The notes under the pieces are model-generated. The model did not search any database, was not told the origin of the DNA, and was given only the letters and a program-made list of their open reading frames with translations. Positions 2,899 through 46,121 of a stretch of DNA of 64,000 nt are shown piece by piece (position 1 is the first letter of the stretch; each line of letters starts with the position of its first letter). The stretch spans positions 2,374-66,373 of the forward strand of contig JAZMZP010000013.1 in NCBI GenBank assembly GCA_045586015.1. The letters are read 5' to 3'. The translations under genes and the position numbers were made by a program. The DNA is from Candidatus Nanosyncoccus sp. (GTDB lineage Bacteria; Patescibacteriota; Saccharimonadia; Saccharimonadales; Saccharimonadaceae).

Positions 2899-2987
2899 CA
2901 CTAAATAATAATAAAACGCATAAAATAGCCCTGAAATTGCATGCTTTCATATAATAAAAAGAACTGCGTTAAAACGAAAAGAACTCG

Positions 2988-3016
2988 TTGACAATCCTTA
3001 TCTTAATATATATAAT
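2988..3016 (+). promoter_or_regulatory. consensus sigma70-type promoter TTGACA-17-TATAAT
   Basis: ttgaca (2988-2993), 17-nt spacer, tataat (3011-3016). No ORF follows. Confidence 0.6.
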
Positions 3017-3351: not shown

Positions 3352-6300
3352 TTATTTCCTCTTCGCTCTTCTACTCGTAAATCCGAAACCTATCATCAAA
3401 ACCACCGCTGCTCCGCCGATCCACATACTCACTACTCCATTCTCAACCGAACCAACGCCAGTCCCCTTCGTAAACCGTCCCGTATCCGGTGTTTCCGGAG
3501 GAACTACGCCGCCACATCCGCCGAACGCACAAGAATCGGTACTTCGGTTCGTAATTACAAATCCATTTTCGGCATCGCCTTCGACTTTCGTACTATAGTC
3601 GTTGCTCAGCGCACCTTCTTCGACCGTATATTCAATCTCGGAACCTTCGCTATATTTATATAGTCCTTCGAACGTATAGACCCACTCACCATTTTCGTTC
3701 TCACTAATCGTCGCCGAATCCGCCTCCTCGCCATTAGCCAGCAAAACTACATAAATACTACTCGGTCTAATACCTAACTTATTATCTCCGTCTTCCCAAA
3801 TCTTCTTCACATTAATCTCGCCAGTTTTATTAATTAATTCCGGTTCGTGGAAATTCGTAAAGGTCGTTGAATATTCATCGCTTTCCGGGTCCACCGCTTC
3901 ATAATCATCAGAATCTAATACTTCTTCTGCCGAATATTCAATCACTTCCCCATCTTTATTTGCGATTGGTAACTCTTCCCAAGTAACGGTCCATACATTC
4001 TCTTCGTCAGTAGCATTCTCTTCCGTTAGCAACTCAGTTTCTACAACTTTATTATCCGCAGACAACTTAACCGTTAACTCGCCCGGTCGTTTGCCGTCTT
4101 GGTCGTGGTTATCTTCCCAAATCTTCGTTACGGTATAAGAAGTTTCATCTGCGACATACTTATTTGTAATCTTAAAGACGACATCTGCTCCGCTCTCAAC
4201 ATCCTTCGTAGTATTATCGCCGGTTGTCGTTCGTTCAAAGTACTCTACATCCGCATTGTTTTCTTTTACAGTATAACTACCAGTTGTGATTTTCCCTTTT
4301 ACCTCACAAGTCGCTTTACTACCCGAAATACTACAATCGCTAAACTTAACTGTCATCTCGCCATTCTTTCCGAAGTCATCCGGCCCAGTTACCGTAAAGG
4401 TCAAATTCTTCAAAGCTTTTTCAGAAACCCCGGAGAAAGTCTTCTCAATCTTTAACGAATTCGCCGTACTTCGTTCATTCGTTACGATATACTCGCCTTT
4501 ATTCCACACATAGCCATCGGCATCAGTAGGCGTGAATGTATAAGTCTTCGTGTAATAGTTCTTGAGTTCTTCTTCGCTTGCACTCGCCCAAGTGCTTTTA
4601 CTAGTAACTTTCAAAACTTCAGTACCTTCAACTAAATCATAACCATCCGCTTCAATTTCTTTAATTTCGTACTTCAAATTATCTTCTGCGGTCGCTTTAT
4701 TCTCCGGCACAGTAATTTTAATCTTACCGTTTTTATCTGTCGTATATGATTTACCATTAATCTCAAACTTCACACCACTTAGTATCTCATCATCCTCGTC
4801 AACCTTCTTTATACTAAACTCAGTACTCCCTTCATAAACCGGAGTTGCCGGTGTCCAAGTATTTTTAACTGCCAACTCTCCATTCTTTTCCGCCGTCCAC
4901 TTTCCTTCTAGGACATTGCCTTCATAAACATACAAAACATCTTTATCTTCGCCAGTCAAACTACTTCCATTAATTCCAGTTTCTTTTACTTCATACTCAA
5001 TTTCTTCGCCCTGATTTTTGTAAACCAATACTTCAATCTCTTCCGATTCCCATTCGCCGTAACCATTCCCTTCTAGACGAATCGTCTTAACTTCGTCATT
5101 ATCATCATTTGTCATCTCAACCATGACGAAGGTTGGCGCCGTAGTCGGTAAACCAGATTCTGGTACGACCCAAGCCTTCTTAATTTTAATCTTCTTAGTT
5201 TCCGGAGTGTGAGTATTAGTTATAACATTATTTTCAATCGTTCTACTATAAACTGTATCGCCAGTAAACTCCGTACAACTTATCTTCCCATTACTTTCCT
5301 TACAATTCTTCGCCTCGACGATAGTATATTCAATCTCATTCCCATTTCCGTCAGTCTTTTGAAGACCCGAAAATTCGAAATTCTGCTCTTTTTCATCAGC
5401 ATCAATCGTCTTAAACGCGACGAACTCATCATCTTGCTTTACCGCAACATAAAGATTATCATAGTCGCTTCGCTTCCCATCTCGGTCATTATCATCGTTC
5501 CAAACCTTCTTCGCCGTCAAATTCGTCGTTTCATAAATATTCGTGAAAGTATTATTATAGTCGGAAACCTTTAGATTTAATTTACCGTCTTCAGTATATT
5601 CTACTTCAACCGTAAAGCTAATCCCTTCCGCAACCTCTTCCGCCGGTACCACACTTTGGATCTTTGAGGTATCAAACGACTCGGAAACCGTATAATGATA
5701 AACCTTATTAACGTCTGCTTCGCTAAAACTAATTGTTCCAAAATCGACTTTATGGTCAGCCGTACTCTTTTTAACGGTCAATGTTTGATTTTTCGGCATC
5801 GGTGCGTCTTCATCGGTACTCGAAATCGTGAAAGTAAATTCATCAGTATTCTCCCAACCCCGGCCTTCTAATACTTTCTCGAATTCTAATTCTTTATTTT
5901 TTCCGTAAGTCGTAGTGCCTTTATATTGGTTATAAATAGTCTGATCTTCCTTTGAGTAAGATTTTTCCTTTAGCACCAAATTCCCCTCGCCATCATCTTC
6001 GACCACAATCTTCGCGACAACATCCTCATCATCTTCAACCCGCGACACGCCATCACGGAAGCCTTCCTCTAACTCAGTAATTGTATACTGATATTCGCCC
6101 TCATCAGTGATAGTAACATCAAAGGTTGCAGTTTCCGTTTTGTCGTTGCCTAACTTTACTGTCTTGCTTTCTTTTACTGTGTTATTGTATTTTAATTGGA
6201 AAGTAAAGTTATCCGAAGGCAACCAGAATACTCTATTGGTAAACGCTTTCTTCGCGAAAACTGCTTCAGTTATTGGCGTAACTTTATAAACATTTACAAA

Positions 6301-9057
6301 TTCCTCATCGTTGTCGCCTTGCTTGATTGTCCCGGTTCTTACAGTTTCTTTACCATTATTAAACCCGGCTTTAGCAGCTTCCGTAATTTCATAATACCAA
6401 CCTTTCGGAATGTTCTTAATCTCGCAGGTATCGCCGTGTTTTAAGCCTTTACAAGTTTCTGTATCGGTCTTTACCGGTTTTTCATCGCCCTGCTTTTCGT
6501 AGAAGTTAACCGTAAAATCAAATTCTTGACCTTCCGCTTTATCTTTGTTCCCGCTCTTAACATCTACAGTTTTCGAAATAGTCAAATCGCCAGACTCGAG
6601 GTAATTAGTTACAGTCGCTTGTGAGCTTGCGTTACCAAATACTTCCTGTACGCCTTCCTTGTCGTCTGTGCCATCATACATTACAACTGTATAATCGACC
6701 TTATTTCTAGTATAACCATTCGGCAATACTTCGGTTACCTCGTATGTAGTACCAGTAGGTACATCTTGTACTCTAATCTTTTGGTTAACTGTTATCTTTT
6801 CGTTAATCACGCCGCCAGTATAAGTTTTCTTCTCTGACCTCTCCTTCTCTGTGCCATCAGGATTATATGTATAAATACGGTAAACGCCAGTATCCTCACT
6901 TAACGTAATGGTGATGTCGTACTCGTCTTCAATTGTTTTATCTTCTTTATCGTTATTGATTACAGTCTTTCCGACCAAAATACCACCATTTAAAGTATTC
7001 TCGAGCGATAGTTTCGTTAATACTCCGTCTTCAATCGTTGCTGTCTTTCCGTCATCGCTAAATACAACGTCATGGATATTGCCGCCCTCGCCAATAATCA
7101 TTGGATGATATTTGCGTTTCGTAATATGATAGTGGTTCGAACCGTCCTCGGTTAGAGAAAGTTGTTCATTATCGAACTCGTAATCACGCCCAGCCTCAAG
7201 TACCACATATTCATCGTTACCTACCCTAACAACAGGACCTAGCCCTCTTAAGCCCTCAGTTTCTGGCGTACCATCAAGTTTTTTCATTACGCCAGGAGCT
7301 ACAGTATATTCACTCTTTCCATTTTCGTCTTCGCCAACCCATTCATTACCACTTCCATCTCCTTTAGTAAAGGTATAATGCCTTTCTCGGTCAGGATTAT
7401 CTTCTCTATCGACAAACAAATCTACTGTTACATCGCTAATATCATCTCGTTGGTCAGCATCCATTGAATCTAACCAAACCTTTACGACGTCTAATGTTGT
7501 TTCCGGTAAATTAGTCGGGTCGCGTTCTTCATCGAAATCAATTGGAATTGAGATATCGGAATAAGTTGTCTCGCCGGTATCCTCGTTCTTTGTTGCCGTC
7601 TTAAATCTAAAGGTTGCTGTATTGTTTGTAATTAGTCTAAAACTACCATCACTATTCACGCCTAAACCAAATTTGGTCAAATCAGATTCGTCGCAAGTAC
7701 CATCATTTCTAATCGATGCGATACAATCCATCGCTTCTTGGCTTGGCCAAACTGTAAAGGTTACCGAAGCTTTCTCGCCATTGGATAATGTTTTATGTTC
7801 ACCTGGGTTCCAATGTACGCTTCCGCCTTCGAAACTTGCTTTACCCCAATCATCACCCCAAGAATCTGGAACGCTGTAACGGAAGTTGCCCGCCGTCCCA
7901 TCAACTTCAGTAGAAGTTGCCGGAGTAATACCATCTTCGATTTGAAGATCTGCTACCGAAAGCCCCATTTTAATCTTATCAACAATTTCTGCAAATGCTT
8001 CTTCGAGAGCATCTTGGTTAGTTGCATTATAGTATGTTCCGCCAAGGTTTTGCATATTTGTAGCATCACCAAAAGTCCCAACAGTATAGAATTCTACATT
8101 TTCAGTACCAATTATTTCATCCGCTACGTCTTTAGCTGCGCCAAAGTTCCAACCATTGTTATCATTCCTACCATTTCCCCATACTTCATCGCATACCGTA
8201 GTCCATCCATCGGTGTAACAATTATCTGTTGCATTAGAATTATATTTGCTGTCACGGAAAGTTGGGTTGCCATCAGATACGAAGATAATATAAGTTTTAT
8301 CATCATCGCCAAACGAAATACTTTTTGCCGTAGTCAATGCAGCTTCCCAGTTAGTACCACCGCCATAGTTAGTGGCATTTACCCAGCCTTTAAAAGTATC
8401 AAGGTCGGTAGTTGGCGCAGTATGAGTTGTATTTGTTTTTACACTTGTAGCGAAATCAACAAAAGCCATCTCTACCACATCTTCGAGCCCAGGAGTACTA
8501 GGATCATTTTGCGAAAGAAGTTCATTAGCCAAAACATTAACAGCCGACTTTGCAACCGTCAATCTCGTTCCATTTATAGTTGTACGAGTATAGCGCGTAC
8601 CAGTAAACAAATTAGTACGATTTACGCAGTCATTATAGGTTGCATAAACCTGTGTCGATGAATTATCGCCATCCATTCTAGAGCAACTACCGTAACTCCT
8701 TCTGTATAATTGTACATAATCGCCATCGACTTTTCTGTAGCGACCACTTGCACTTTCTGAGTAAGAATAAGTCGTTGCTCCTCCATTCATACTTCCAGAC
8801 GAATCGAATACAACTACAACGTTCGCCTTAGTAGCGTCAGTTTTCTGCTTTGAAACACCTTCAATTTCAAGTGTGATATCATAAGTACCATCTTTATTAG
8901 ATTTTACTGACTTTAGACTTTTCGGGATATTTTCCTCCGCTGGGACAATCCCTTGTTCGTCATCCGCAGCATATGTATTCAAAAAGGCCGTCGGCATCGT
9001 GCCAAAGACCATTACGACCGCTGCGAAAATATTTAATATTTTTCGCTTTATTTTCAT
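3352..9057 (-). CDS. giant cell-surface adhesin: signal peptide, vWA domain, many CnaB / pilin-isopeptide-type Ig-like domains, LPXTG-like sorting tail
   Basis: Start set at MKIKRKILNIFAAVVMVFGTMPTAFLNTYAADD, preceded by AAGGAG. vWA MIDAS motifs VVVVFDSSGSMNG and IIFVSDGNPT. Repeated K[VI]W.D..D.DG.RP CnaB motifs and FTF.L...GEYQYTITE pilin-type motifs. C-terminus is PETPDTG...hydrophobic stretch...RRAKRK. Confidence 0.9.
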   Translation of the reverse strand: MKIKRKILNIFAAVVMVFGTMPTAFLNTYAADDEQGIVPAEENIPKSLKSVKSNKDGTYDITLEIEGVSKQKTDATKANVVVVFDSSGSMNGGATTYSYSESASGRYRKVDGDYVQLYRRSYGSCSRMDGDNSSTQVYATYNDCVNRTNLFTGTRYTRTTINGTRLTVAKSAVNVLANELLSQNDPSTPGLEDVVEMAFVDFATSVKTNTTHTAPTTDLDTFKGWVNATNYGGGTNWEAALTTAKSISFGDDDKTYIIFVSDGNPTFRDSKYNSNATDNCYTDGWTTVCDEVWGNGRNDNNGWNFGAAKDVADEIIGTENVEFYTVGTFGDATNMQNLGGTYYNATNQDALEEAFAEIVDKIKMGLSVADLQIEDGITPATSTEVDGTAGNFRYSVPDSWGDDWGKASFEGGSVHWNPGEHKTLSNGEKASVTFTVWPSQEAMDCIASIRNDGTCDESDLTKFGLGVNSDGSFRLITNNTATFRFKTATKNEDTGETTYSDISIPIDFDEERDPTNLPETTLDVVKVWLDSMDADQRDDISDVTVDLFVDREDNPDRERHYTFTKGDGSGNEWVGEDENGKSEYTVAPGVMKKLDGTPETEGLRGLGPVVRVGNDEYVVLEAGRDYEFDNEQLSLTEDGSNHYHITKRKYHPMIIGEGGNIHDVVFSDDGKTATIEDGVLTKLSLENTLNGGILVGKTVINNDKEDKTIEDEYDITITLSEDTGVYRIYTYNPDGTEKERSEKKTYTGGVINEKITVNQKIRVQDVPTGTTYEVTEVLPNGYTRNKVDYTVVMYDGTDDKEGVQEVFGNASSQATVTNYLESGDLTISKTVDVKSGNKDKAEGQEFDFTVNFYEKQGDEKPVKTDTETCKGLKHGDTCEIKNIPKGWYYEITEAAKAGFNNGKETVRTGTIKQGDNDEEFVNVYKVTPITEAVFAKKAFTNRVFWLPSDNFTFQLKYNNTVKESKTVKLGNDKTETATFDVTITDEGEYQYTITELEEGFRDGVSRVEDDEDVVAKIVVEDDGEGNLVLKEKSYSKEDQTIYNQYKGTTTYGKNKELEFEKVLEGRGWENTDEFTFTISSTDEDAPMPKNQTLTVKKSTADHKVDFGTISFSEADVNKVYHYTVSESFDTSKIQSVVPAEEVAEGISFTVEVEYTEDGKLNLKVSDYNNTFTNIYETTNLTAKKVWNDDNDRDGKRSDYDNLYVAVKQDDEFVAFKTIDADEKEQNFEFSGLQKTDGNGNEIEYTIVEAKNCKESNGKISCTEFTGDTVYSRTIENNVITNTHTPETKKIKIKKAWVVPESGLPTTAPTFVMVEMTNDDNDEVKTIRLEGNGYGEWESEEIEVLVYKNQGEEIEYEVKETGINGSSLTGEDKDVLYVYEGNVLEGKWTAEKNGELAVKNTWTPATPVYEGSTEFSIKKVDEDDEILSGVKFEINGKSYTTDKNGKIKITVPENKATAEDNLKYEIKEIEADGYDLVEGTEVLKVTSKSTWASASEEELKNYYTKTYTFTPTDADGYVWNKGEYIVTNERSTANSLKIEKTFSGVSEKALKNLTFTVTGPDDFGKNGEMTVKFSDCSISGSKATCEVKGKITTGSYTVKENNADVEYFERTTTGDNTTKDVESGADVVFKITNKYVADETSYTVTKIWEDNHDQDGKRPGELTVKLSADNKVVETELLTEENATDEENVWTVTWEELPIANKDGEVIEYSAEEVLDSDDYEAVDPESDEYSTTFTNFHEPELINKTGEINVKKIWEDGDNKLGIRPSSIYVVLLANGEEADSATISENENGEWVYTFEGLYKYSEGSEIEYTVEEGALSNDYSTKVEGDAENGFVITNRSTDSCAFGGCGGVVPPETPDTGRFTKGTGVGSVENGVVSMWIGGAAVVLMIGFGFTSRRAKRK

Positions 9058-9085
9058 TTTATACTCCTTCGCTAGTATTGCCGCC

Positions 9086-9114
9086 ATTATATCACTCGCG
9101 TCAAGTAGGAGCAA
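9086..9114 (-). promoter_or_regulatory. promoter of adhesin gene (TTGCTC-17-TGaTATAAT)
   Basis: Minus strand reads ttgctc-N17-tataat with the TG extension. A ~24-nt leader carries AAGGAG. Confidence 0.5.
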
Positions 9115-9165: not shown

Positions 9166-9174
9166 TGCTATAAT
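9166..9174 (+). promoter_or_regulatory. extended -10 promoter (TGCTATAAT) for the 9229 gene
   Basis: tgctataat-aaactt-ATG; the ATG (9181) opens only a 6-codon mini-ORF (MLRLYS*, 9181-9201) ahead of the real gene. Confidence 0.45.
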
Positions 9175-9228
9175 AAACTTATGCTAAGATTATATAGCTA
9201 AAATATATAAAGGGCGAGAATAGTAAAA

Positions 9229-10845
9229 ATGGGAAAATCAACGATAACATTATTTAGTTTAACAGGCTTAACTCTTCTTTCTGGTCTTATCTTATCTTCC
9301 TCTCGCGTTTCCGCTGACAACTCCGTTATTGACGAAGTCAACATCGTAGTCCCAGTTTCTTGTAGTCTTTCTGGTGTCGGTATGACCTCGCATAATACTA
9401 GTATTAATAACGGCACTTACGCTTCTGATATTGGTACTACTGCTCTGAAAGCTTCGTGTAACGACTTAAACGGTTTTGCTATCTATGCTGCCGGCTATAC
9501 CGGCGATGAGGTAGGCGGAACTGATAGTACTAAACTAGTCGGAGAAAATGATATAGGTAACATCTTAACCGGAACCGGAACTAGCGGTAACTCCCAATGG
9601 GCAATGAAACTGGCTACTGACTCTAACGCTACTTATCCAATTACCATAGAATCAGACGCTAACGGCTCCTTCGCCTCTTATCATATTGTTCCAGAAGACT
9701 TTGTTAAAGTCGCTTCAAGAAACTCTAGTACCGATATCGGCTCGGCTTCTATCGGCGCAGTTCTAACTACGACTTACCAAGTCTACATCTCCGCCACCCA
9801 ACCCGCCGGAACCTACTCAGGCAAGGTTATTTATGCTTTAGTCCACCCAGCTAACCACTCCGCCCCAGTCATTTGTAATGAAAATGCCACTACTATTTCA
9901 GAAGTCAAATGTATGCAGGATTTCGCAACTGTTTCTAGCACCAACCGAACTGCTATTGTCAACTCTATGACTTTAGGACAGCAATACACTCTAAAAGATA
10001 AACGCGATGGAAAAACTTATACTGTCGCTAAACTCGCTGATGGGAATGTCTGGATGACACAGAACTTAGACTTAAATCTAGATTCTGGAACTACTTATAC
10101 TAATTTAGATACTGATATTGGTTATAATACAAGTACCGGAACTTATGATACAGCGGCTTGGAGTCCGACTCGTTCTACTTATGCTACTACTCTTGATGAT
10201 CTTCATGCATGGTGTCAGGGTGGAATTTGGGATTCGGAGAATTATACTTGTACAGATAATACTATTCCTGAATCATACGATGCAGGGGACTTGTATTGGA
10301 ATGGCACTCCTTGGCCTTTAAACCAGGCAGATTGTATCTCAGCGAATGGGGTTTGGGATGATGATTGGTGTAGTGGCGTTGTTGTATCTGGTTCTACTGG
10401 TATTGCGCAGTATCACTTAGGTAATTATTATAACTGGGCGGCAGCGCTCGCGACTAATGATAGCTCGGTGTTTGGCGCCCAGAATCAGAATGAAATAGTC
10501 GAACAATCTATTTGCCCAGTCGGTTGGACTTTGCCAAGGAGTCATGGAAGCGTAGATACATTCCAGGGCCTTTGGGAGGCATATGGATATGATGATGAAG
10601 ATGGGATTGCTAATGTTTCGACTTTATGGTCTAATCCGCTTTATATGCCTCCGAGCGGGTATTATGTGGGTGGCATATATGGGGTTGGGTTTGATGGCAA
10701 TTTTTGGTCAGCGGTTGCTGCTGGGTCGACTGATGCGAGAGCTGCAGCTTTCTATGTTGTCAATTCTACTTATCCGACAAACATTTATGTAAGAGGTAAT
10801 GCTTTTTCTGTGCGTTGCATAGCCCGTCCAGTCGTAAGCGAGTAA
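9229..10845 (+). CDS. secreted surface protein: signal peptide + N-terminal beta-rich module + C-terminal FISUMP (TIGR02145-like) domain
   Basis: Signal peptide MGKSTITLFSLTGLTLLSGLILSSSRVSA. FISUMP motifs KDKRDGKTYTVAKLADGNVWMTQNL, YYNWAAA, CPVGWTLP, FWSA, AFSVRCIARP. Confidence 0.85.
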   Translation: MGKSTITLFSLTGLTLLSGLILSSSRVSADNSVIDEVNIVVPVSCSLSGVGMTSHNTSINNGTYASDIGTTALKASCNDLNGFAIYAAGYTGDEVGGTDSTKLVGENDIGNILTGTGTSGNSQWAMKLATDSNATYPITIESDANGSFASYHIVPEDFVKVASRNSSTDIGSASIGAVLTTTYQVYISATQPAGTYSGKVIYALVHPANHSAPVICNENATTISEVKCMQDFATVSSTNRTAIVNSMTLGQQYTLKDKRDGKTYTVAKLADGNVWMTQNLDLNLDSGTTYTNLDTDIGYNTSTGTYDTAAWSPTRSTYATTLDDLHAWCQGGIWDSENYTCTDNTIPESYDAGDLYWNGTPWPLNQADCISANGVWDDDWCSGVVVSGSTGIAQYHLGNYYNWAAALATNDSSVFGAQNQNEIVEQSICPVGWTLPRSHGSVDTFQGLWEAYGYDDEDGIANVSTLWSNPLYMPPSGYYVGGIYGVGFDGNFWSAVAAGSTDARAAAFYVVNSTYPTNIYVRGNAFSVRCIARPVVSE

Positions 10846-17663: not shown

Positions 17664-18734
17664 CTAGATTTCAAGAAAACTGTCAATAAAACCCTCGATC
17701 TCTCCGTCTAAAACCTTATCTGGATCCGTTTCTTCATAACCAGTTCGCGTATCTTTTACGAGCTTATAAGGCTGCAAAACATAATTCCGAATTTGTTGTC
17801 CCCAACCTGCTGACTCGCCCGCGCGAAGCTCCCCGATTGTCGCCGCGTGTTGCTCTAGCTGCATCTGGACCAATTTACCTCTTAAAATATCCATCGCTTT
17901 TTCTTTATTTTGTAACTGTGACCGTTCGTTCTGAATCGCGACAACCGTATTCGTCGGAAGATGTGTGATTCGAACCGCCGAATTCGTCGTGTTAACCGAC
18001 TGCCCGCCGTGCCCGCCTGAATGATAAACATCGATTCGTAAGTCTTTATCGTCAATCTGAACCTCTGTATCCGCCTTAATTACCGGTAAAATTTCAACTA
18101 GCGCGAACGAAGTCTGGCGTAAATTATTCGCATTAAACGGCGATAATCGGACAAGTCGATGGACCCCGTGCTCTGACTTCAAAAGCCCATAAACATTCGT
18201 TCCCGACACTTCATAAACCGCCGTTTTTATCCCCGCTTCTTCGCCGGTTACCCGTTCTAAACAAGTCGCCTTAAACCCTTTTCGTTCAAAAAACCTCAAA
18301 TACATCCGCTCGAGCATTCCCGCCCAGTCCATCGCTTCCGTTCCGCCCGCCCCAGAAGTAATTCGAATAATCGCATCTTTCCCATCGTACGGCCCCTGAA
18401 ATCTTAAAGCCTTTTTAAGCTCCGAAAATTCACTCTCCATTCCTTCGATTTGACCGCTAATTTCTTCTTTTAAATCTTCGTCCGAAAGTGTCATTAATTC
18501 ACTTAAATCATTAATCTGGGTCTTTAAAAGCGCCCAAGGCTGCACTTCGTCCTGTAATTTCGAGAGCTCCTGATTTTTTGCCGTCGCCACTTCAACATCT
18601 CGCCAAATTTCCGGCTCCGCCACCTCTTTTTCGAGTTCCTCAATTTTTAAAACCTTATCAGATATTAGAAGTTTCTCATAGACCTTTAAAAACTCTTCTT
18701 TTAATGCCTCTAGTCGTTTCTGTAATTCCTGCAT
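17664..18734 (-). CDS. prfB: peptide chain release factor 2, single uninterrupted ORF (no +1 frameshift site)
   Basis: SPF tripeptide (RLSPFNANN) and GGQ (SGGHGGQSVN). N-terminus is continuous from MQELQKRLEALKEEF. Confidence 0.93.
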   Translation of the reverse strand: MQELQKRLEALKEEFLKVYEKLLISDKVLKIEELEKEVAEPEIWRDVEVATAKNQELSKLQDEVQPWALLKTQINDLSELMTLSDEDLKEEISGQIEGMESEFSELKKALRFQGPYDGKDAIIRITSGAGGTEAMDWAGMLERMYLRFFERKGFKATCLERVTGEEAGIKTAVYEVSGTNVYGLLKSEHGVHRLVRLSPFNANNLRQTSFALVEILPVIKADTEVQIDDKDLRIDVYHSGGHGGQSVNTTNSAVRITHLPTNTVVAIQNERSQLQNKEKAMDILRGKLVQMQLEQHAATIGELRAGESAGWGQQIRNYVLQPYKLVKDTRTGYEETDPDKVLDGEIEGFIDSFLEI

Positions 18735-18740
18735 AGGAAA

Positions 18741-18749
18741 ATTATAACA
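18741..18749 (-). promoter_or_regulatory. extended -10 (TGTTATAAT) exactly 6 nt upstream of the prfB ATG (leaderless architecture)
   Basis: Minus strand reads tgttataat-tttcct-ATGcag; no Shine-Dalgarno is possible. Confidence 0.6.
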
Positions 18750-18776
18750 TAAAAAACCCGCCTTTAAAGGCGGGTT
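18749..18776 (-). terminator. intrinsic terminator of the 18781 gene
   Basis: aacccgcc-tttaaa-ggcgggtt followed by TTTTTT on the minus strand. Confidence 0.7.
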
Positions 18777-38410: not shown

Positions 38411-38761
38411 ATCATCCTGAATCAAAACTAAGTTCCCATCGTCAATCCGATATTCGTATTCATCATTTAGCGTATATAGCCAATCCGTCTCGATTTTCAA
38501 CTTCCCGTCCTCAATCGCCCAGATGAAGTCATAGCTATTTTCATTATTATTGGTCGTTAATTTCCCTTTCCCTATCTCAGAAAAAGTCCAAATCACGCTC
38601 GGCTCGTCTTCTTTTACCCAGCTATCCACCGAAATTAAATATTCCCCGTCCTGAAGCGAAGCGCCCTTATTTAGATTAAGAACTAAAAAAATCACGCCGA
38701 TAACAAGCGTAATTAATCCGATAATAAAAACAATAATTGAGATAATTTGCTTCTTCTTCAT
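38330..38761 (-). CDS. hypothetical membrane-anchored protein (143 aa)
   Basis: N-terminal TM helix IISIIVFIIGLITLVIGVIFLVL. The last 27 codons overlap the convergent DUF1846 3' end. Confidence 0.6.
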   Translation of the reverse strand: MKKKQIISIIVFIIGLITLVIGVIFLVLNLNKGASLQDGEYLISVDSWVKEDEPSVIWTFSEIGKGKLTTNNNENSYDFIWAIEDGKLKIETDWLYTLNDEYEYRIDDGNLVLIQDDSTEIKFNPTSSVDSEIREDDELIVGD

Positions 38762-38770
38762 ACCCCCATT

Positions 38771-39154
38771 TTAGCAATAGAGTTTTGATTTTACAAGTTC
38801 AAGATAGCTTTTTGCCGCTTGGCGGAAATTATCGAGCTCCTCTCCCTCGATTTTTACATAAGAACTACCAGCCACTTTTTTATAAACTCCATTTGGCCTA
38901 ACTTCATAACGAATAGTCATATCTTGAAGTTTTCCAAAAGTATCCGACCAATCTTCGTGCCAGAACCAGACATTTCCTTTATGCTTGAAAAATTCCCGGT
39001 TATGACCGTCAGGCACCGGTCCAAAAATCGTCTTCCCGAGCTCAGATTCGGCATTAATTAAGTCCTCATAACTTAATTTATTTGAATATGGGACTTTTGG
39101 AAGTAAATCGTTTCCGATATTAGTAATTGATTTTAACAGTTTCTTGAGCGACAT
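38771..39154 (-). CDS. hypothetical protein (127 aa)
   Basis: GAGGAG 8 nt upstream of the ATG. No recognisable motif. Confidence 0.65.
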   Translation of the reverse strand: MSLKKLLKSITNIGNDLLPKVPYSNKLSYEDLINAESELGKTIFGPVPDGHNREFFKHKGNVWFWHEDWSDTFGKLQDMTIRYEVRPNGVYKKVAGSSYVKIEGEELDNFRQAAKSYLELVKSKLYC

Positions 39155-39279
39155 TGTTCAATCTCCTCATTTATTGCATTTAATTCTTCGTAAATCTTCT
39201 TATCTTCGTCTTTAGCCTCAAAATTATAGGCCTCATCGCCCATTAGGGGTATTCTGAAAAGTTGATTCTCCCTTTCCAT
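39133..39279 (-). CDS. candidate leaderless small ORF (48 aa, acidic), below the ORF-track size cut-off
   Basis: MERENQLFRIPLMGDEAYNFEAKDEDKKIYEELNAINEEIEQCRSRNC. Its ATG is exactly 6 nt after TGATATAAT. Its 3' end overlaps the SD and start of the next gene. Confidence 0.4.
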   Translation of the reverse strand: MERENQLFRIPLMGDEAYNFEAKDEDKKIYEELNAINEEIEQCRSRNC

Positions 39280-39285
39280 ACCCTA

Positions 39286-39294
39286 ATTATATCA
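39286..39294 (-). promoter_or_regulatory. extended -10 (TGATATAAT) whose TGA is the tatD stop codon
   Basis: Minus strand reads tgatataat-tagggt-ATGgaa. Confidence 0.5.
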
Positions 39295-41867: not shown

Positions 41868-43523
41868 TTATCGTTTTCCGGAATTAGGCGCTTTCGGAAT
41901 TGGCGAAATTAATTTCTGCTGAACACTAATGCTAATTCCCTCTCCTCTTAAATCGTCCGTAATCGGAACTAAAGTAATTTGATTCTTAACTCCGCTTTTT
42001 AACCCACCGATAGTAATTTCATCTAAATCTGTTACCCCTAAAATCACATCATTTAAAATCACAATCGCTTGATTGCTACTACTATTAAACTTAATCCGAA
42101 CTTCCGTCTCCGAAATTTCCGTCACTTCTTTAATTTCTAAAGCTGGCAAATCAGCCCCAAGACTTTCCTCAACACGTGGCAAACTATCATACCGCTCCAT
42201 AATATAATCCGTCAGTAAATCTAGCGTATTAAAATCAGTCACAACTTTCCCATCAGTTCTCTCAGCTAGTTCATCATAGCTTTTCGCCGATTCTTCGTTT
42301 GTAATAATATAGAAATTAACCGGATCAATTTCTTTACTTAAACGCACTACCTCATCCAAAGTCACACCATCACGGTCTGGCGTTAAAAACGGCGCATCAG
42401 TTAAAACTACTACCGACTTCGTCGCTCCAAATTTCCATTTTAAGCTTTTCATCGCCGAAAACGATGCCGAAAGTAGCGATTCGTTCGTATCGCCTCCACC
42501 ATCAACCTCAATTTCCTCCAATTTCTGTTGTATTACATCTATAGTACAAGTCTCAAAATTACAATGTTCAACCGGCGTATACGGATCGTTCAAATCTCGA
42601 TAATCATAAAGCGCCACTCTCCCGCCCGACTCAAAAGTCTTCGTCGCGAGTCTAATCGCTTCCGCTTTGTATTCGCCAATCATCCTACTCATCGATCCGG
42701 TTGAATCTAGCATAATGACCGTGTCGTGTGGCGACGAAACCATATTTTCAATCCCAAACGATTGCGCAATCTTATCAAAAATCACTTTTGATGCATCGGT
42801 ATAAAGTTCGTCTTCAATGTAAGTCAAATGATTATCCATACTATATTTCGAACTGCAAAAAATGTCACTTTTATTACACCAAGTCCCGACTTTGCCGAGT
42901 AAACTCTCCGGCTCATATGGCATATACGCCCCGAGCAGTCCTTTGTAAGCTTGACAATCCGGTACATAGGCTCGATAATCCGATAAATTTTCCCCTCGAC
43001 ATGCCGCCGGAAAAAGCCCTTTTCCTTCTGGCAGATAAATTTTCGGATCTCCAAAAGTCGCCGCAAAAATTAATCGCTCTGACTTTAAACTACCCAAAGA
43101 TTTCGAAACTACCATCGCACCCTGAGAATATCCGCCAATCACATATTTTGTATTTGGGCAGCTAGAATCATTTACCATTTTTACTAAATTATTCACACCC
43201 GCATTCACACTATCGCCGAACTCATAACTATCGCCCGAGCCGAAATAGGCCCCGAGTGTAACTCTTAAATTATCGACTCCGACTCCGACCGCTGGATAAT
43301 CTAAATCGACAAACTCATAATTTAAATTGGTTGACTCAAGTTTAGTTTGGATTGAGTTTTTAAAACTCAAATAATCATCCGTCGTCCATCTTTCTCCACC
43401 CGAACCGCGCGCGAATACGATTCTTAGCTCCGGGCAGTTTACTGCTTCCGCTTTAATTCTCGGCACCAAACTCGCGGTTAAAACAATTAAAGTTAATATT
43501 AAATATTTGATTTTACCTCGCAT
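41868..43523 (-). CDS. secreted cutinase-like serine esterase fused to a vWA domain and a C-terminal beta-rich tail
   Basis: Signal peptide MRGKIKYLILTLIVLTASLVPRIKAEA. Cutinase motifs IVFARGSGG, GGYSQGA, SDIFCSS...H. vWA MIDAS motifs VIMLDSTGSMS, GGGDTNES, VVVLTDAPF. Confidence 0.8.
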   Translation of the reverse strand: MRGKIKYLILTLIVLTASLVPRIKAEAVNCPELRIVFARGSGGERWTTDDYLSFKNSIQTKLESTNLNYEFVDLDYPAVGVGVDNLRVTLGAYFGSGDSYEFGDSVNAGVNNLVKMVNDSSCPNTKYVIGGYSQGAMVVSKSLGSLKSERLIFAATFGDPKIYLPEGKGLFPAACRGENLSDYRAYVPDCQAYKGLLGAYMPYEPESLLGKVGTWCNKSDIFCSSKYSMDNHLTYIEDELYTDASKVIFDKIAQSFGIENMVSSPHDTVIMLDSTGSMSRMIGEYKAEAIRLATKTFESGGRVALYDYRDLNDPYTPVEHCNFETCTIDVIQQKLEEIEVDGGGDTNESLLSASFSAMKSLKWKFGATKSVVVLTDAPFLTPDRDGVTLDEVVRLSKEIDPVNFYIITNEESAKSYDELAERTDGKVVTDFNTLDLLTDYIMERYDSLPRVEESLGADLPALEIKEVTEISETEVRIKFNSSSNQAIVILNDVILGVTDLDEITIGGLKSGVKNQITLVPITDDLRGEGISISVQQKLISPIPKAPNSGKR

Positions 43524-44251: not shown

Positions 44252-44899
44252 TTACCATTCGATTGGTTTTAGGTTGTTTTTTTCCAAGAAAGCATTGGTT
44301 TTAGAAAATGGTTTACTCCCAAAAAACCCAGCGTAAGCCGAAAGTGGCGACGGATGCGCTGATTCTAGAATTAAATGCTTCGAACTATCAATGAGTGATT
44401 TTTTATTTCTCGCGTCACGCCCCCAAAGAATAAACACTAAATGCGGACGCGTTTCATTTAAATATTTAATTACTTCTGTCGTAAAAATCTCCCAACCTCT
44501 TCCGCTATGCGATTTTGGTTTGTGTGCTTCTACTGTCAAAACTGTATTTAATAATAAAACTCCTTGTTTTTGCCATTTTCTTAAACTTCCCCGCGGATTT
44601 TCGTGATGCCCGATATCCGAATCGATTTCCTTATATATATTAATTAAGGACGGTGGTATTGGTTCCGAATTTGGCACCGAAAATGCGAGCCCCATCGCCG
44701 CTCCCGGCGTATGATAAGGATCTTGCCCCAAAATTACTACCTTTACTTCGTTTAAATCAGTCGTAAAAGCCGAAAAAACTAACTCTTTTTTAGGAAAAAT
44801 CGTTTTTGTTTCATATTCAGTGTGCAGGAACTCGGACAATTCTTTAAAATATGGCTTCTTGAACTCGCTTTTTAAAAACGGCTTCCAACTCTCATGCAT
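44252..44899 (-). CDS. ung: uracil-DNA glycosylase, family 1
   Basis: GQDPYH and HPSPLS motifs. Start at MHESWKPFL. Confidence 0.93.
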   Translation of the reverse strand: MHESWKPFLKSEFKKPYFKELSEFLHTEYETKTIFPKKELVFSAFTTDLNEVKVVILGQDPYHTPGAAMGLAFSVPNSEPIPPSLINIYKEIDSDIGHHENPRGSLRKWQKQGVLLLNTVLTVEAHKPKSHSGRGWEIFTTEVIKYLNETRPHLVFILWGRDARNKKSLIDSSKHLILESAHPSPLSAYAGFFGSKPFSKTNAFLEKNNLKPIEW

Positions 44900-44916
44900 G
44901 CTATAATTATAGCATG
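44897..44916. promoter_or_regulatory. perfect 20-bp palindrome CATGCTATAATTATAGCATG holding both start codons and overlapping TGCTATAAT boxes of divergent ung and tdk
   Basis: Each strand reads TGCTATAAT-tatagc-ATG. The -10 boxes are 44902-44907 (+) and 44906-44911 (-). Confidence 0.7.
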
Positions 44917-45501
44917 GCAAAACTATATTTTAGATATGGCGCGATGGGATGTGGCAAAACGATGCAACTTCTCCAAGTCGCATTTAATTATGAAGAGCGC
45001 GGTCATAAAGTCTGCGTGATCAAACCAAAAACCGACACCAAAAATGGCACGAAACTCTTAACTCGTATCGGTCCCGAGCGTGAAACTAATTTTTGTTTCG
45101 ACAAAAATACTGACTTATTCAAAGAAATCTTGAAAAACTACGACGACGTTCATTGTGTTTTAATTGATGAAGCACAATTCTTGACCGCAAAACAAGTCGA
45201 CGAACTGATGCTGATTACTGTTAAATTAAATATTCCCGTGATGGCATATGGACTTCGCCTCAATTTTCGCCAAAAAGACGGTGGCTTCGAAGGCGCGACA
45301 AGACTACTTCAAATCGCCCACGACATCGAAGAAATAAAAACCATTTGCGAATGCGGCCATAAAGCGACCTTGAATTGCCGTTTTATGGGCGATAAGCTCG
45401 TCACTGACGGTCCTGACATTTTAATCGACAATGGGAAAAATAAAGTCGAATATCGTGCACTTTGCCCTGCTTGTTATCAAAAATATTTGGAGGCAAAATA
45501 A
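44914..45501 (+). CDS. tdk: thymidine kinase
   Basis: GAMGCGKT P-loop, IDEAQF, and zinc ribbon CECG...CPAC. Confidence 0.93.
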   Translation: MAKLYFRYGAMGCGKTMQLLQVAFNYEERGHKVCVIKPKTDTKNGTKLLTRIGPERETNFCFDKNTDLFKEILKNYDDVHCVLIDEAQFLTAKQVDELMLITVKLNIPVMAYGLRLNFRQKDGGFEGATRLLQIAHDIEEIKTICECGHKATLNCRFMGDKLVTDGPDILIDNGKNKVEYRALCPACYQKYLEAK

Positions 45502-46121
45502 TGTATATTGTAATTGAAGGCCAAGATGGCACCGGAAAAGATACTCAAGCTAAAAAACTCAAAGAATACTTTGAATCACAAGGTAAAACCGTGGTAACTT
45601 ATGCTGAATCCGGTACCGCTAGTAAAGATAAATTTATTTCCGAAATCGCCCGCTTAACTTATGGTTCAAAACAGGACATCGACCACCGCACTCGTGTGAT
45701 GTTATATTTAGTCAATCGTTATGAACAATGGCGTAAACTCGCCGAGCCAGCCTTAAAAAATGGCGACATCGTAATTACGACTCGAAACTGGTTTTCTACT
45801 TTGGTCTATGAGGGTTACGGCGGCGGCGTGAGTCGTTCGTTAATTATTAAGCTCCATAAACTAATTATGCCAGAACCATATTTCCATCCAGATAAGATTT
45901 TCCTATTTACTATAGACGAGCAAGAACAACAAAAGCGTCTCGGCACCCAAACTGATCAAAATTGGGACCGCAAACAAGAAGTCTGGAAATCTAAAGGCGA
46001 AACCTTCCAACAAAAGATTAACAAGGCTTACTTAAAAATCGCCAAAGAATTCGACGTCACTACCATCGACGCTTCCGGTACGATCGAAGAAATTTTCGAT
46101 TCAATTATCAGCAAATTGTGA
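45501..46121 (+). CDS. tmk: thymidylate kinase
   Basis: MYIVIEGQDGTGKDT P-loop. GGAGG upstream; its ATG overlaps the tdk stop (TAATG). Confidence 0.9.
   Translation: MYIVIEGQDGTGKDTQAKKLKEYFESQGKTVVTYAESGTASKDKFISEIARLTYGSKQDIDHRTRVMLYLVNRYEQWRKLAEPALKNGDIVITTRNWFSTLVYEGYGGGVSRSLIIKLHKLIMPEPYFHPDKIFLFTIDEQEQQKRLGTQTDQNWDRKQEVWKSKGETFQQKINKAYLKIAKEFDVTTIDASGTIEEIFDSIISKL

Follow-up and report, generated by a model that had tools for sequence, protein, structure and literature searches.

A 20-bp palindrome between ung and tdk in Candidatus Nanosyncoccus: a putative minimal bidirectional promoter for two leaderless mRNAs

The ung–tdk junction

The DNA analysed here is a 64,000-nucleotide stretch, called the window throughout, from Candidatus Nanosyncoccus, a member of the Saccharibacteria (TM7 group G3) found in ruminant guts. 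The genes annotated between 41868 and 46121 encode a cutinase/VWA protein, a dCMP deaminase and the products of ung, tdk and tmk (Table 1). tdk and tmk form an operon, with tdk as its first gene and tmk as its second, and ung is divergent from them. Between the start codons of ung and tdk lie 14 nt (44900–44913), and the gap and both codons together make up the sequence CATGCTATAATTATAGCATG, a perfect palindrome whose arms are 10 bp long and no longer.

Table 1. Genes and promoter elements at the ung–tdk junction (window coordinates)
Feature	Position	Strand	Remarks
ung, uracil-DNA glycosylase, 215 aa	44252–44899	-	ATG at 44899
tdk, thymidine kinase, 195 aa	44914–45501	+	ATG at 44914
tmk, dTMP kinase	45501–46121	+	ATG overlaps the tdk stop codon; own Shine-Dalgarno GGAGG
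Bidirectional cassette, 20-bp palindrome	44897–44916		Two start codons, two extended -10 elements, two 6-nt spacers
tdk extended -10 element, TGCTATAAT	44899–44907	+	T at 44899 lies opposite the first base (A) of the ung ATG
ung extended -10 element, TGCTATAAT	44906–44914	-	T lies opposite the first base (A) of the tdk ATG, 44914

An earlier note made from the letters of this DNA had described a perfect 20-bp palindrome here that reads the same way on both strands, with two -10 boxes overlapping by 2 bp and start codons 14 nt apart, and a reverse-complement check of 44897–44916 confirmed each of these points. Both strands read TGCTATAAT-TATAGC-ATG, and the TATAAT boxes, at 44902–44907 on the + strand and 44911–44906 on the - strand, have 44906–44907 in common. 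Perfect palindromes with arms of at least 10 bp occur twice in the window, where 0.07 would be expected from base composition and 0.135 from the mean of 200 first-order Markov simulations, none of which contained two or more (0/200). The second, at 18755–18776, is a terminator-like hairpin. An intrinsic terminator or RNA hairpin was also considered for the ung–tdk site and rejected: its stem is rich in AT, it lacks a T-run, and the terminator scan does not include it. If transcription starts at the two ATGs, the palindrome would never be transcribed as one unit.

The assignment of both start codons to the palindrome is borne out by the alignment of tdk to its protein family, by the lack of an alternative for tdk and by the poor conservation of the alternative for ung. 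The tdk product matches NF003300 (E 3.8e-65), its first residue falling at profile position 1; its open reading frame (ORF) contains no start codon further upstream, and the next ATG lies within the P-loop GAMGCGKT. A comparison of tdk with PDB sequences gave no match at E 1e-20 or better. The ung product matches NCBIfam NF003592 (E 1.7e-93), its first residue falling at profile position 5, and its residue 2 aligns with residue 6 of the uracil-DNA glycosylase in PDB chain 3zoq_A. The earlier note had named a TTG at 44920 as a start codon that, if used by ung, would undo its reading. This TTG is kept in 7 of the 19 species that carry the palindrome between ung and tdk; in the other 12, no in-frame start is found upstream before a stop codon. 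No Shine-Dalgarno motif precedes the TTG; we therefore rejected it, and the ATG at 44899 stands.

A promoter scan that requires a -35 element (TTGACA/TATAAT) found no site at the cassette, as may happen with a design ill-suited to extended -10 promoters. Visual inspection of the hexamers that lie 17 bp before the two boxes, CGGCTT and ATCTAA, showed no likeness to a -35 element, in keeping with promoters of the extended -10 type. Judged from their sequences, the housekeeping promoters of Nanosyncoccus appear to be of this type in general (TGnTATAAT), often without a recognisable -35 box.

Start signals in the window and in Nanosyncoccus

We inspected the 50 nt upstream of every long ORF in the window. 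The sequence TGNTATAAT occurs 25 times against 3.3 expected, and the arrangement TGNTATAAT-N6-ATG occurs nine times against 0.04 expected, a count reached in none of 100 shuffles. In 13 genes a TGnTAnnnT element ends mostly 6 nt, and rarely 7–10 nt, before the ATG. When a GGAG-like motif was sought in the 20 nt upstream of the start, it was missing in 12 of these 13 genes, and in the thirteenth, at 38761, it is just the G-run of the gene's own spacer. Most of the remaining window genes, including all those for ribosomal proteins and also tmk, have a GGAG-type Shine-Dalgarno sequence. ATG is the start codon of all leaderless candidates in the window. The earlier description of ung and tdk as leaderless genes agrees with this pattern: both have a consensus extended -10 element exactly 6 nt upstream and no Shine-Dalgarno sequence, the layout of about a quarter of the window genes.

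Counting the distance from TGNTATAAT to the first ATG of ORFs of at least 80 aa in 545 kb of Nanosyncoccus DNA gave a sharp peak at 6 nt (60 cases), with shoulders at 7–9 nt, although this sample is rich in homologous loci and is not independent evidence; a second peak at 17–20 nt corresponds to leadered genes. With a 6-nt spacer between the -10 hexamer and the ATG, the canonical start site, 7 nt past the hexamer, is the A of the ATG. We infer that 44899 on the - strand and 44914 on the + strand are the transcription start sites, which would give leaderless ung and tdk mRNAs. In relatives with spacers of 8–10 nt, the transcript may carry a leader of 1–4 nt, and the term leaderless is then approximate.

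The same layout is known from other genomes. Those with a Pribnow box 6–8 nt from leaderless starts make up a recognised class, group C of GeneMarkS-2 (Actinobacteria, Deinococcus-Thermus; Lomsadze et al. 2018, PMC6028130; Shell et al. 2015, PMC4633059), in which the box precedes the start codons of genes that are first in their operons, a large minority of transcription units (PMC6028130). The window shows both marks of leaderless genes, a -10 box 6–8 nt upstream and the absence of a Shine-Dalgarno sequence that is present in other genes. The resemblance to group C extends to the division of labour, as the leaderless candidates lack a Shine-Dalgarno sequence and the internal or leadered genes keep one. 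In contrast to the weaker actinobacterial TAnnnT, the -10 element of the host is a strong extended consensus, TGnTATAAT. Saccharibacteria and Patescibacteria are not named among the group C taxa in the available text of PMC6028130, and our literature search found no description of leaderless mRNAs, start-site maps or this cassette for either group.

The two genes might instead be transcribed with a leader from promoters farther upstream, inside the coding region of the neighbouring gene, the TATAAT boxes being incidental AT-rich sequence and translation proceeding without a Shine-Dalgarno sequence in some other way. RNA reading through the junction could fold into a hairpin of 8–10 bp (-9.9 kcal/mol, z = -2.8) that sequesters both start codons, and about nine relatives have a leadered tdk that depends on a Shine-Dalgarno sequence (see below). 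We nevertheless think this improbable, because the count of nine motifs against 0.04, the 6-nt peak and the split between genes with a Shine-Dalgarno sequence and genes with a -10 box would all have to be coincidences, as would the invariance of the promoter positions in 19 species and the 69 of 76 saccharibacterial cassettes, among the matches listed, in which both ATGs open an ORF. A simple promoter scan moreover found no better promoter upstream within either ung or tdk.

Several other start regions in the window deserve mention. At 18732–18776 (-), a terminator, a promoter and a start codon are fused: a GC-rich hairpin, whose 18755–18776 is the second perfect palindrome mentioned above, and its T-run continue into the TGTTATAAT-N6-ATG of the next gene. 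The same fusion is found upstream of 24512 (-), 25484 (+) and 27089 (+), and at these sites the T-tract of the terminator may also serve the promoter as its AT-rich upstream part. At 9166–9201 (+), a consensus TGCTATAAT-N6-ATG opens an ORF of six codons (MLRLYS, then a stop), and the gene at 9229, which has a Shine-Dalgarno sequence, follows after about 30 nt. The short ORF could be a leaderless mini-ORF within a 5' leader, or a start site may coincide with an ATG by accident. At 39130–39294 (-) there is probably a small leaderless gene that has escaped annotation, with a product of about 49 aa (MERENQLFRIPLMGDEAYNF...); the TG of its extended -10 element belongs to the TGA stop codon of an upstream TatD-like gene, and its 3' end overlaps the ATG at 39154. 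At 2890–2898 and 9086–9094 (-), TGGTATAATG and TGATATAATG are placed so that the -10 hexamer shares bases with the ORF's first ATG; these two genes, one of which encodes a 1,900-aa protein (3352–9114), probably start in reality at an ATG farther downstream.

Origin of the symmetry and recurrence of the cassette

The earlier note had called the palindrome an ideal site for a dimeric repressor. Two TGnTATAAT-N6-ATG modules were placed on opposite strands, and the bases at which they clash were counted gap by gap. With 6-nt spacers and gaps of 4–29 nt, the 14-nt gap alone is free of conflict. In this register the terminal AT of the hexamers is common to both boxes, and each TG places its T opposite the A of the other gene's start codon and its G opposite a C at -1 of the other start site. 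The register thus fixes 18 of the 20 bases and leaves free only the two 'n' positions of TGn. As the stacked modules force these 18 bases, the symmetry is a by-product that implies no extra constraint, and it is no evidence for a repressor site.

A search of the ung–tdk junction in relatives, which the earlier note had suggested as a check, showed that the positions of the palindrome are kept in 19 species but for the two free bases. In the window and the 18 other species with the 14-nt gap, the 18 forced positions are invariant and each of the two 'n' positions varies, with four alleles. The free positions are complementary in 9 of the 19, against 8.1 expected from base counts if they were independent. 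In the flanks of the cassette, 18 of the 22 variable columns among these species are third codon positions.

In our sample of the 80 best tdk loci plus the window, ung is divergent at a 14-nt gap in 19 loci, and other short gaps are found at 18 nt (10 loci), 17 nt (4) and 16 nt (1). At gaps of 16–18 nt, nearly all junctions use the same TATAAT boxes in a palindrome that is perfect or almost so, the exception being L009 (16 nt). Gaps of 37–42 nt occur in about nine loci, in which tdk has a leader of about 20 nt with an AAGAGG Shine-Dalgarno sequence and ung keeps TATAAT-N6-ATG. The relatives with leadered tdk are L025, L030, L034, L042, L046, L054, L057 (region ~2958–3001), L059 and L078; their two -10 boxes are adjacent and do not overlap, a natural switch of one orthologous gene from the leaderless to the leadered state. 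The leaderless state is therefore not obligatory for tdk. In 27 other loci, ung is on the same strand, is divergent at a distance of at least 48 nt or is missing from the flank. An exact TGnTATAAT-N6-ATG is nevertheless kept before tdk in 18 of these 27, the rest having mostly a near-match or a leader with a Shine-Dalgarno sequence. Two further loci, with tdk at a contig end, were unreadable. The leaderless promoter travels with each gene, and the palindrome arises whenever ung and tdk abut. In L004 (2981–3003), which has no ung within 3 kb of tdk, the latter is preceded by half a cassette, CGTGTTATAATTATAGCATG; this still contains the mirror-image ATTATA box but has ACG at the opposite start codon, which suggests that ung was recently lost or moved.

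We then scanned one genome per species, for 185,579 species, with the pattern CATGnTATAATTATAnCATG, and found at least 120 loci in public genomes; these and the other cross-species counts of the cassette are not phylogenetically independent. An ORF was accepted if it began exactly at the ATG and ran for at least 60 aa or to the contig end. Among the matches listed, both ATGs open such an ORF in 85 of 120 cassettes, compared with about 24% for a random ATG. Of these 85, Saccharibacteria account for 69 (out of 76 cassettes), other Patescibacteria for 7 (out of 11) and the remaining taxa for 9 (out of 33), again among the matches listed. Across all taxa, at least 29 types of gene pair flank the cassette in the matches listed, among them ung/tdk (14 loci), GlyRS/ABC transporter (14) and DnaG/204-aa protein (8); further pairs in the same list are glycosyltransferase/SmpB, GpsA-like/IscU-like and glutaredoxin/SpoU methylase. 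In representatives of the DnaG, GpsA-like, IscU-like, glutaredoxin-like and SpoU-like proteins, the first Pfam domain begins within 8 residues of the ATG.

Related forms differ in the length of the spacers. A 24-bp form, with 8-nt spacers on both sides (8/8), is found at 74 loci against about 0.03 expected by our own estimate (596 Gb / 4^22), and both ORFs are present in 69 of the 74, at the same orthologous pairs. An asymmetric 22-bp form (6/8) is found at 40 loci, 35 of which have both ORFs. For the states 6/6, 6/8 and 8/8, the numbers of loci are thus at least 120, 40 and 74, and those at the DnaG pair 8 (among the matches listed), 15 and 47. The 6/8 form is rarer than an independence model predicts, with 40 loci against about 188 or more (from the counts of at least 120 and 74), a comparison in which species are not independent samples. 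At the ung/tdk pair, both the 6/6 and the 8/8 form were found in the scanned genomes, and no 6/8 intermediate (0 of the 40 loci). The scarcity of 6/8 forms and their absence at ung/tdk may be due to shared ancestry; selection for balanced halves, or mutation templated by the palindrome, is possible as well. We do not take the scarcity as evidence for an operator. An asymmetric 22-bp cassette, CATGATATAATTATATCATATG (…ACCATATG in L313), is also present in the Pelagibacteraceae L281, L287, L304, L306, L311 and L313. In these six SAR11 genomes it lies between ORFs of about 173–179 aa and 77–86 aa that start at its ATGs, and the same device may therefore exist outside the Patescibacteria.

With these counts in hand, two further readings of the palindrome can be weighed. 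It could be primarily an operator at which a dimeric transcription factor represses or co-regulates ung and tdk-tmk, its symmetry having been selected for binding. The 20-bp symmetry is indeed perfect, the ung/tdk pair shows symmetric forms only (6/6 and 8/8), and perfect palindromes are slightly more frequent than expected, 40 against 32.1 among the 120 cassette matches listed. We regard this reading as very unlikely. The promoter and start modules already dictate 18 of the 20 bases, and the two positions left free behave independently, both in the 19 species and, at 40 against 32.1, in the matches listed. Asymmetric 6/8 versions are tolerated at other gene pairs and are common at the DnaG pair, and a single ancestral transition could explain why intermediates are missing at ung/tdk. 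Service to at least 29 unrelated types of housekeeping gene pair, in several phyla, is a misfit with a dedicated regulator, and none of the five genes at 41868–46121 matches a family of DNA-binding regulators. The earlier suggestion of an ideal repressor site is thus not upheld.

The palindrome might also be a chance product of AT-rich intergenic DNA with no particular function, given that the sequence is AT-rich and that TATAAT is itself partly symmetric. This is almost certainly wrong. Only 0.07–0.14 such palindromes are expected per window, the site has been kept in 19 species while the flanking codons drifted, and the 24-bp relative occurs at 74 loci against about 0.03 expected by our own estimate. 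Conservation and recurrence refute it.

A putative minimal bidirectional promoter

We consider it likely, from sequence comparisons, that the palindrome serves as a minimal promoter in both directions and that each of its two mRNAs is leaderless. A sigma-70-type holoenzyme would bind the extended -10 element in either orientation, melt the DNA from about -11 to +2 and start at the A of the ATG. The mRNA would have neither a 5' UTR nor a Shine-Dalgarno sequence, and the ribosome would load directly on the 5'-terminal AUG. Because both open complexes would need the same 8–10 bp and the footprint of each would cover the opposite promoter, only one polymerase could be accommodated at a time. The direction would presumably be chosen stochastically, with any bias coming from sequence outside the 20 bp only. 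The positions of the start sites, the leaderless translation and the mutual exclusion of polymerases are all predictions of this model. Our search of the literature returned no transcript 5' ends, N-terminal peptides or promoter assays for the host or any other Saccharibacterium.

Bidirectional promoters with overlapping -10 elements have been described by Warman, Forrest, Wade and Grainger (10.1101/2020.01.31.928960; Nucleic Acids Res 2026, PMC12825309). In these promoters, divergent start sites lie 7–25 bp apart around shared pseudo-symmetric -10 elements, sequence alone drives transcription in both directions, and use for mRNAs is frequent; such promoters, and steric exclusion between their polymerases, are established in E. 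coli and other bacteria (10.1101/2020.01.31.928960; PMC12825309). The cassette resembles them in that its -10 elements, on opposite strands, overlap within a short pseudo-symmetric sequence, and its predicted start sites, 15 bp apart, fall inside the range of 7–25 bp. This 15-bp register differs from those preferred in E. coli (18, 10, 23, 12, 29 and 7 bp), which reflect a preference and not a strict criterion. The offset of the cassette appears to be set by the TG of the extended -10 element and the ATG, and not by pairing of -10 positions 2 and 6. In E. coli, one base pair can serve as +1 and as a contact of the opposite promoter, a +1/-18 overlap (10.1101/2020.01.31.928960; PMC12825309), whereas in the cassette the shared contact would be between the T of the TG motif (-15) and the opposite +1 A. 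The cassette differs further in that both mRNAs are predicted to be leaderless, with the promoter enclosing both start codons and an intergenic region of 14 bp in all. Each of its halves is full consensus, in contrast to the weak E. coli promoters tested.

Archaeal bidirectional promoters, in Thermococcus kodakarensis and Haloferax volcanii, are built from TATA/BRE elements and TBP/TFB with spacings of 36–52 bp, and the opposite start site in T. kodakarensis can coincide with the first C-G base pair of the BRE (10.1101/2020.01.31.928960). As in these archaea, the promoter element of one strand of the cassette would be the start site of the other; unlike them, the cassette is of the sigma-70 type. 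We found no specific case in the literature searched of two divergent leaderless genes with one common promoter. What sets the cassette apart is its register, the sharing of bases between TG and start codon, the predicted double leaderless arrangement, the two consensus halves and the lineage; the mechanism is what would be expected from combining two known phenomena.

Mutual exclusion of two polymerases, as predicted here, follows from the established bidirectional promoters (PMC12825309). At those promoters, competition matters only when promoter activity is high (PMC12825309), and at low occupancy the competition between ung and tdk may be negligible. A designed trade-off between the two genes is unlikely, because the cassette serves at least 29 unrelated types of gene pair and because the adjacency of ung and tdk is absent or differently spaced in most relatives. 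A more far-reaching proposal is that, in Saccharibacteria and other ultrasmall Patescibacteria, CATGnTATAATTATAnCATG and its 22- and 24-bp relatives are a selected device that works without transcription factors. Its halves, both of consensus strength and using the same melted DNA, would block each other and so give the two housekeeping genes of a pair a fixed, anti-correlated, low-noise ratio that replaces the regulators missing from these reduced genomes. Selection or palindrome-templated repair would keep the halves balanced, and this would account for the near-absence of asymmetric intermediates at ung/tdk. We put this forward as a speculation that is rather unlikely to be correct.

Should the start sites lie elsewhere, the cassette would be merely a conserved curiosity. 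If they are confirmed, it would be about the most compact regulatory unit conceivable in a bacterium, with two promoters and two translation starts in 20 bp and no untranslated RNA. Its consensus halves make it a natural test of whether competition between polymerases sets expression ratios and noise, a question raised and left open for E. coli, where the promoters tested were weak (PMC12825309). For the new genetic systems in Patescibacteria, it offers a ready-made bidirectional expression part defined by its sequence. Gene calling in these genomes would be affected too, as start codons without a Shine-Dalgarno sequence and small leaderless ORFs are easily missed. If our reading is true, Saccharibacteria would rely heavily on leaderless mRNAs.
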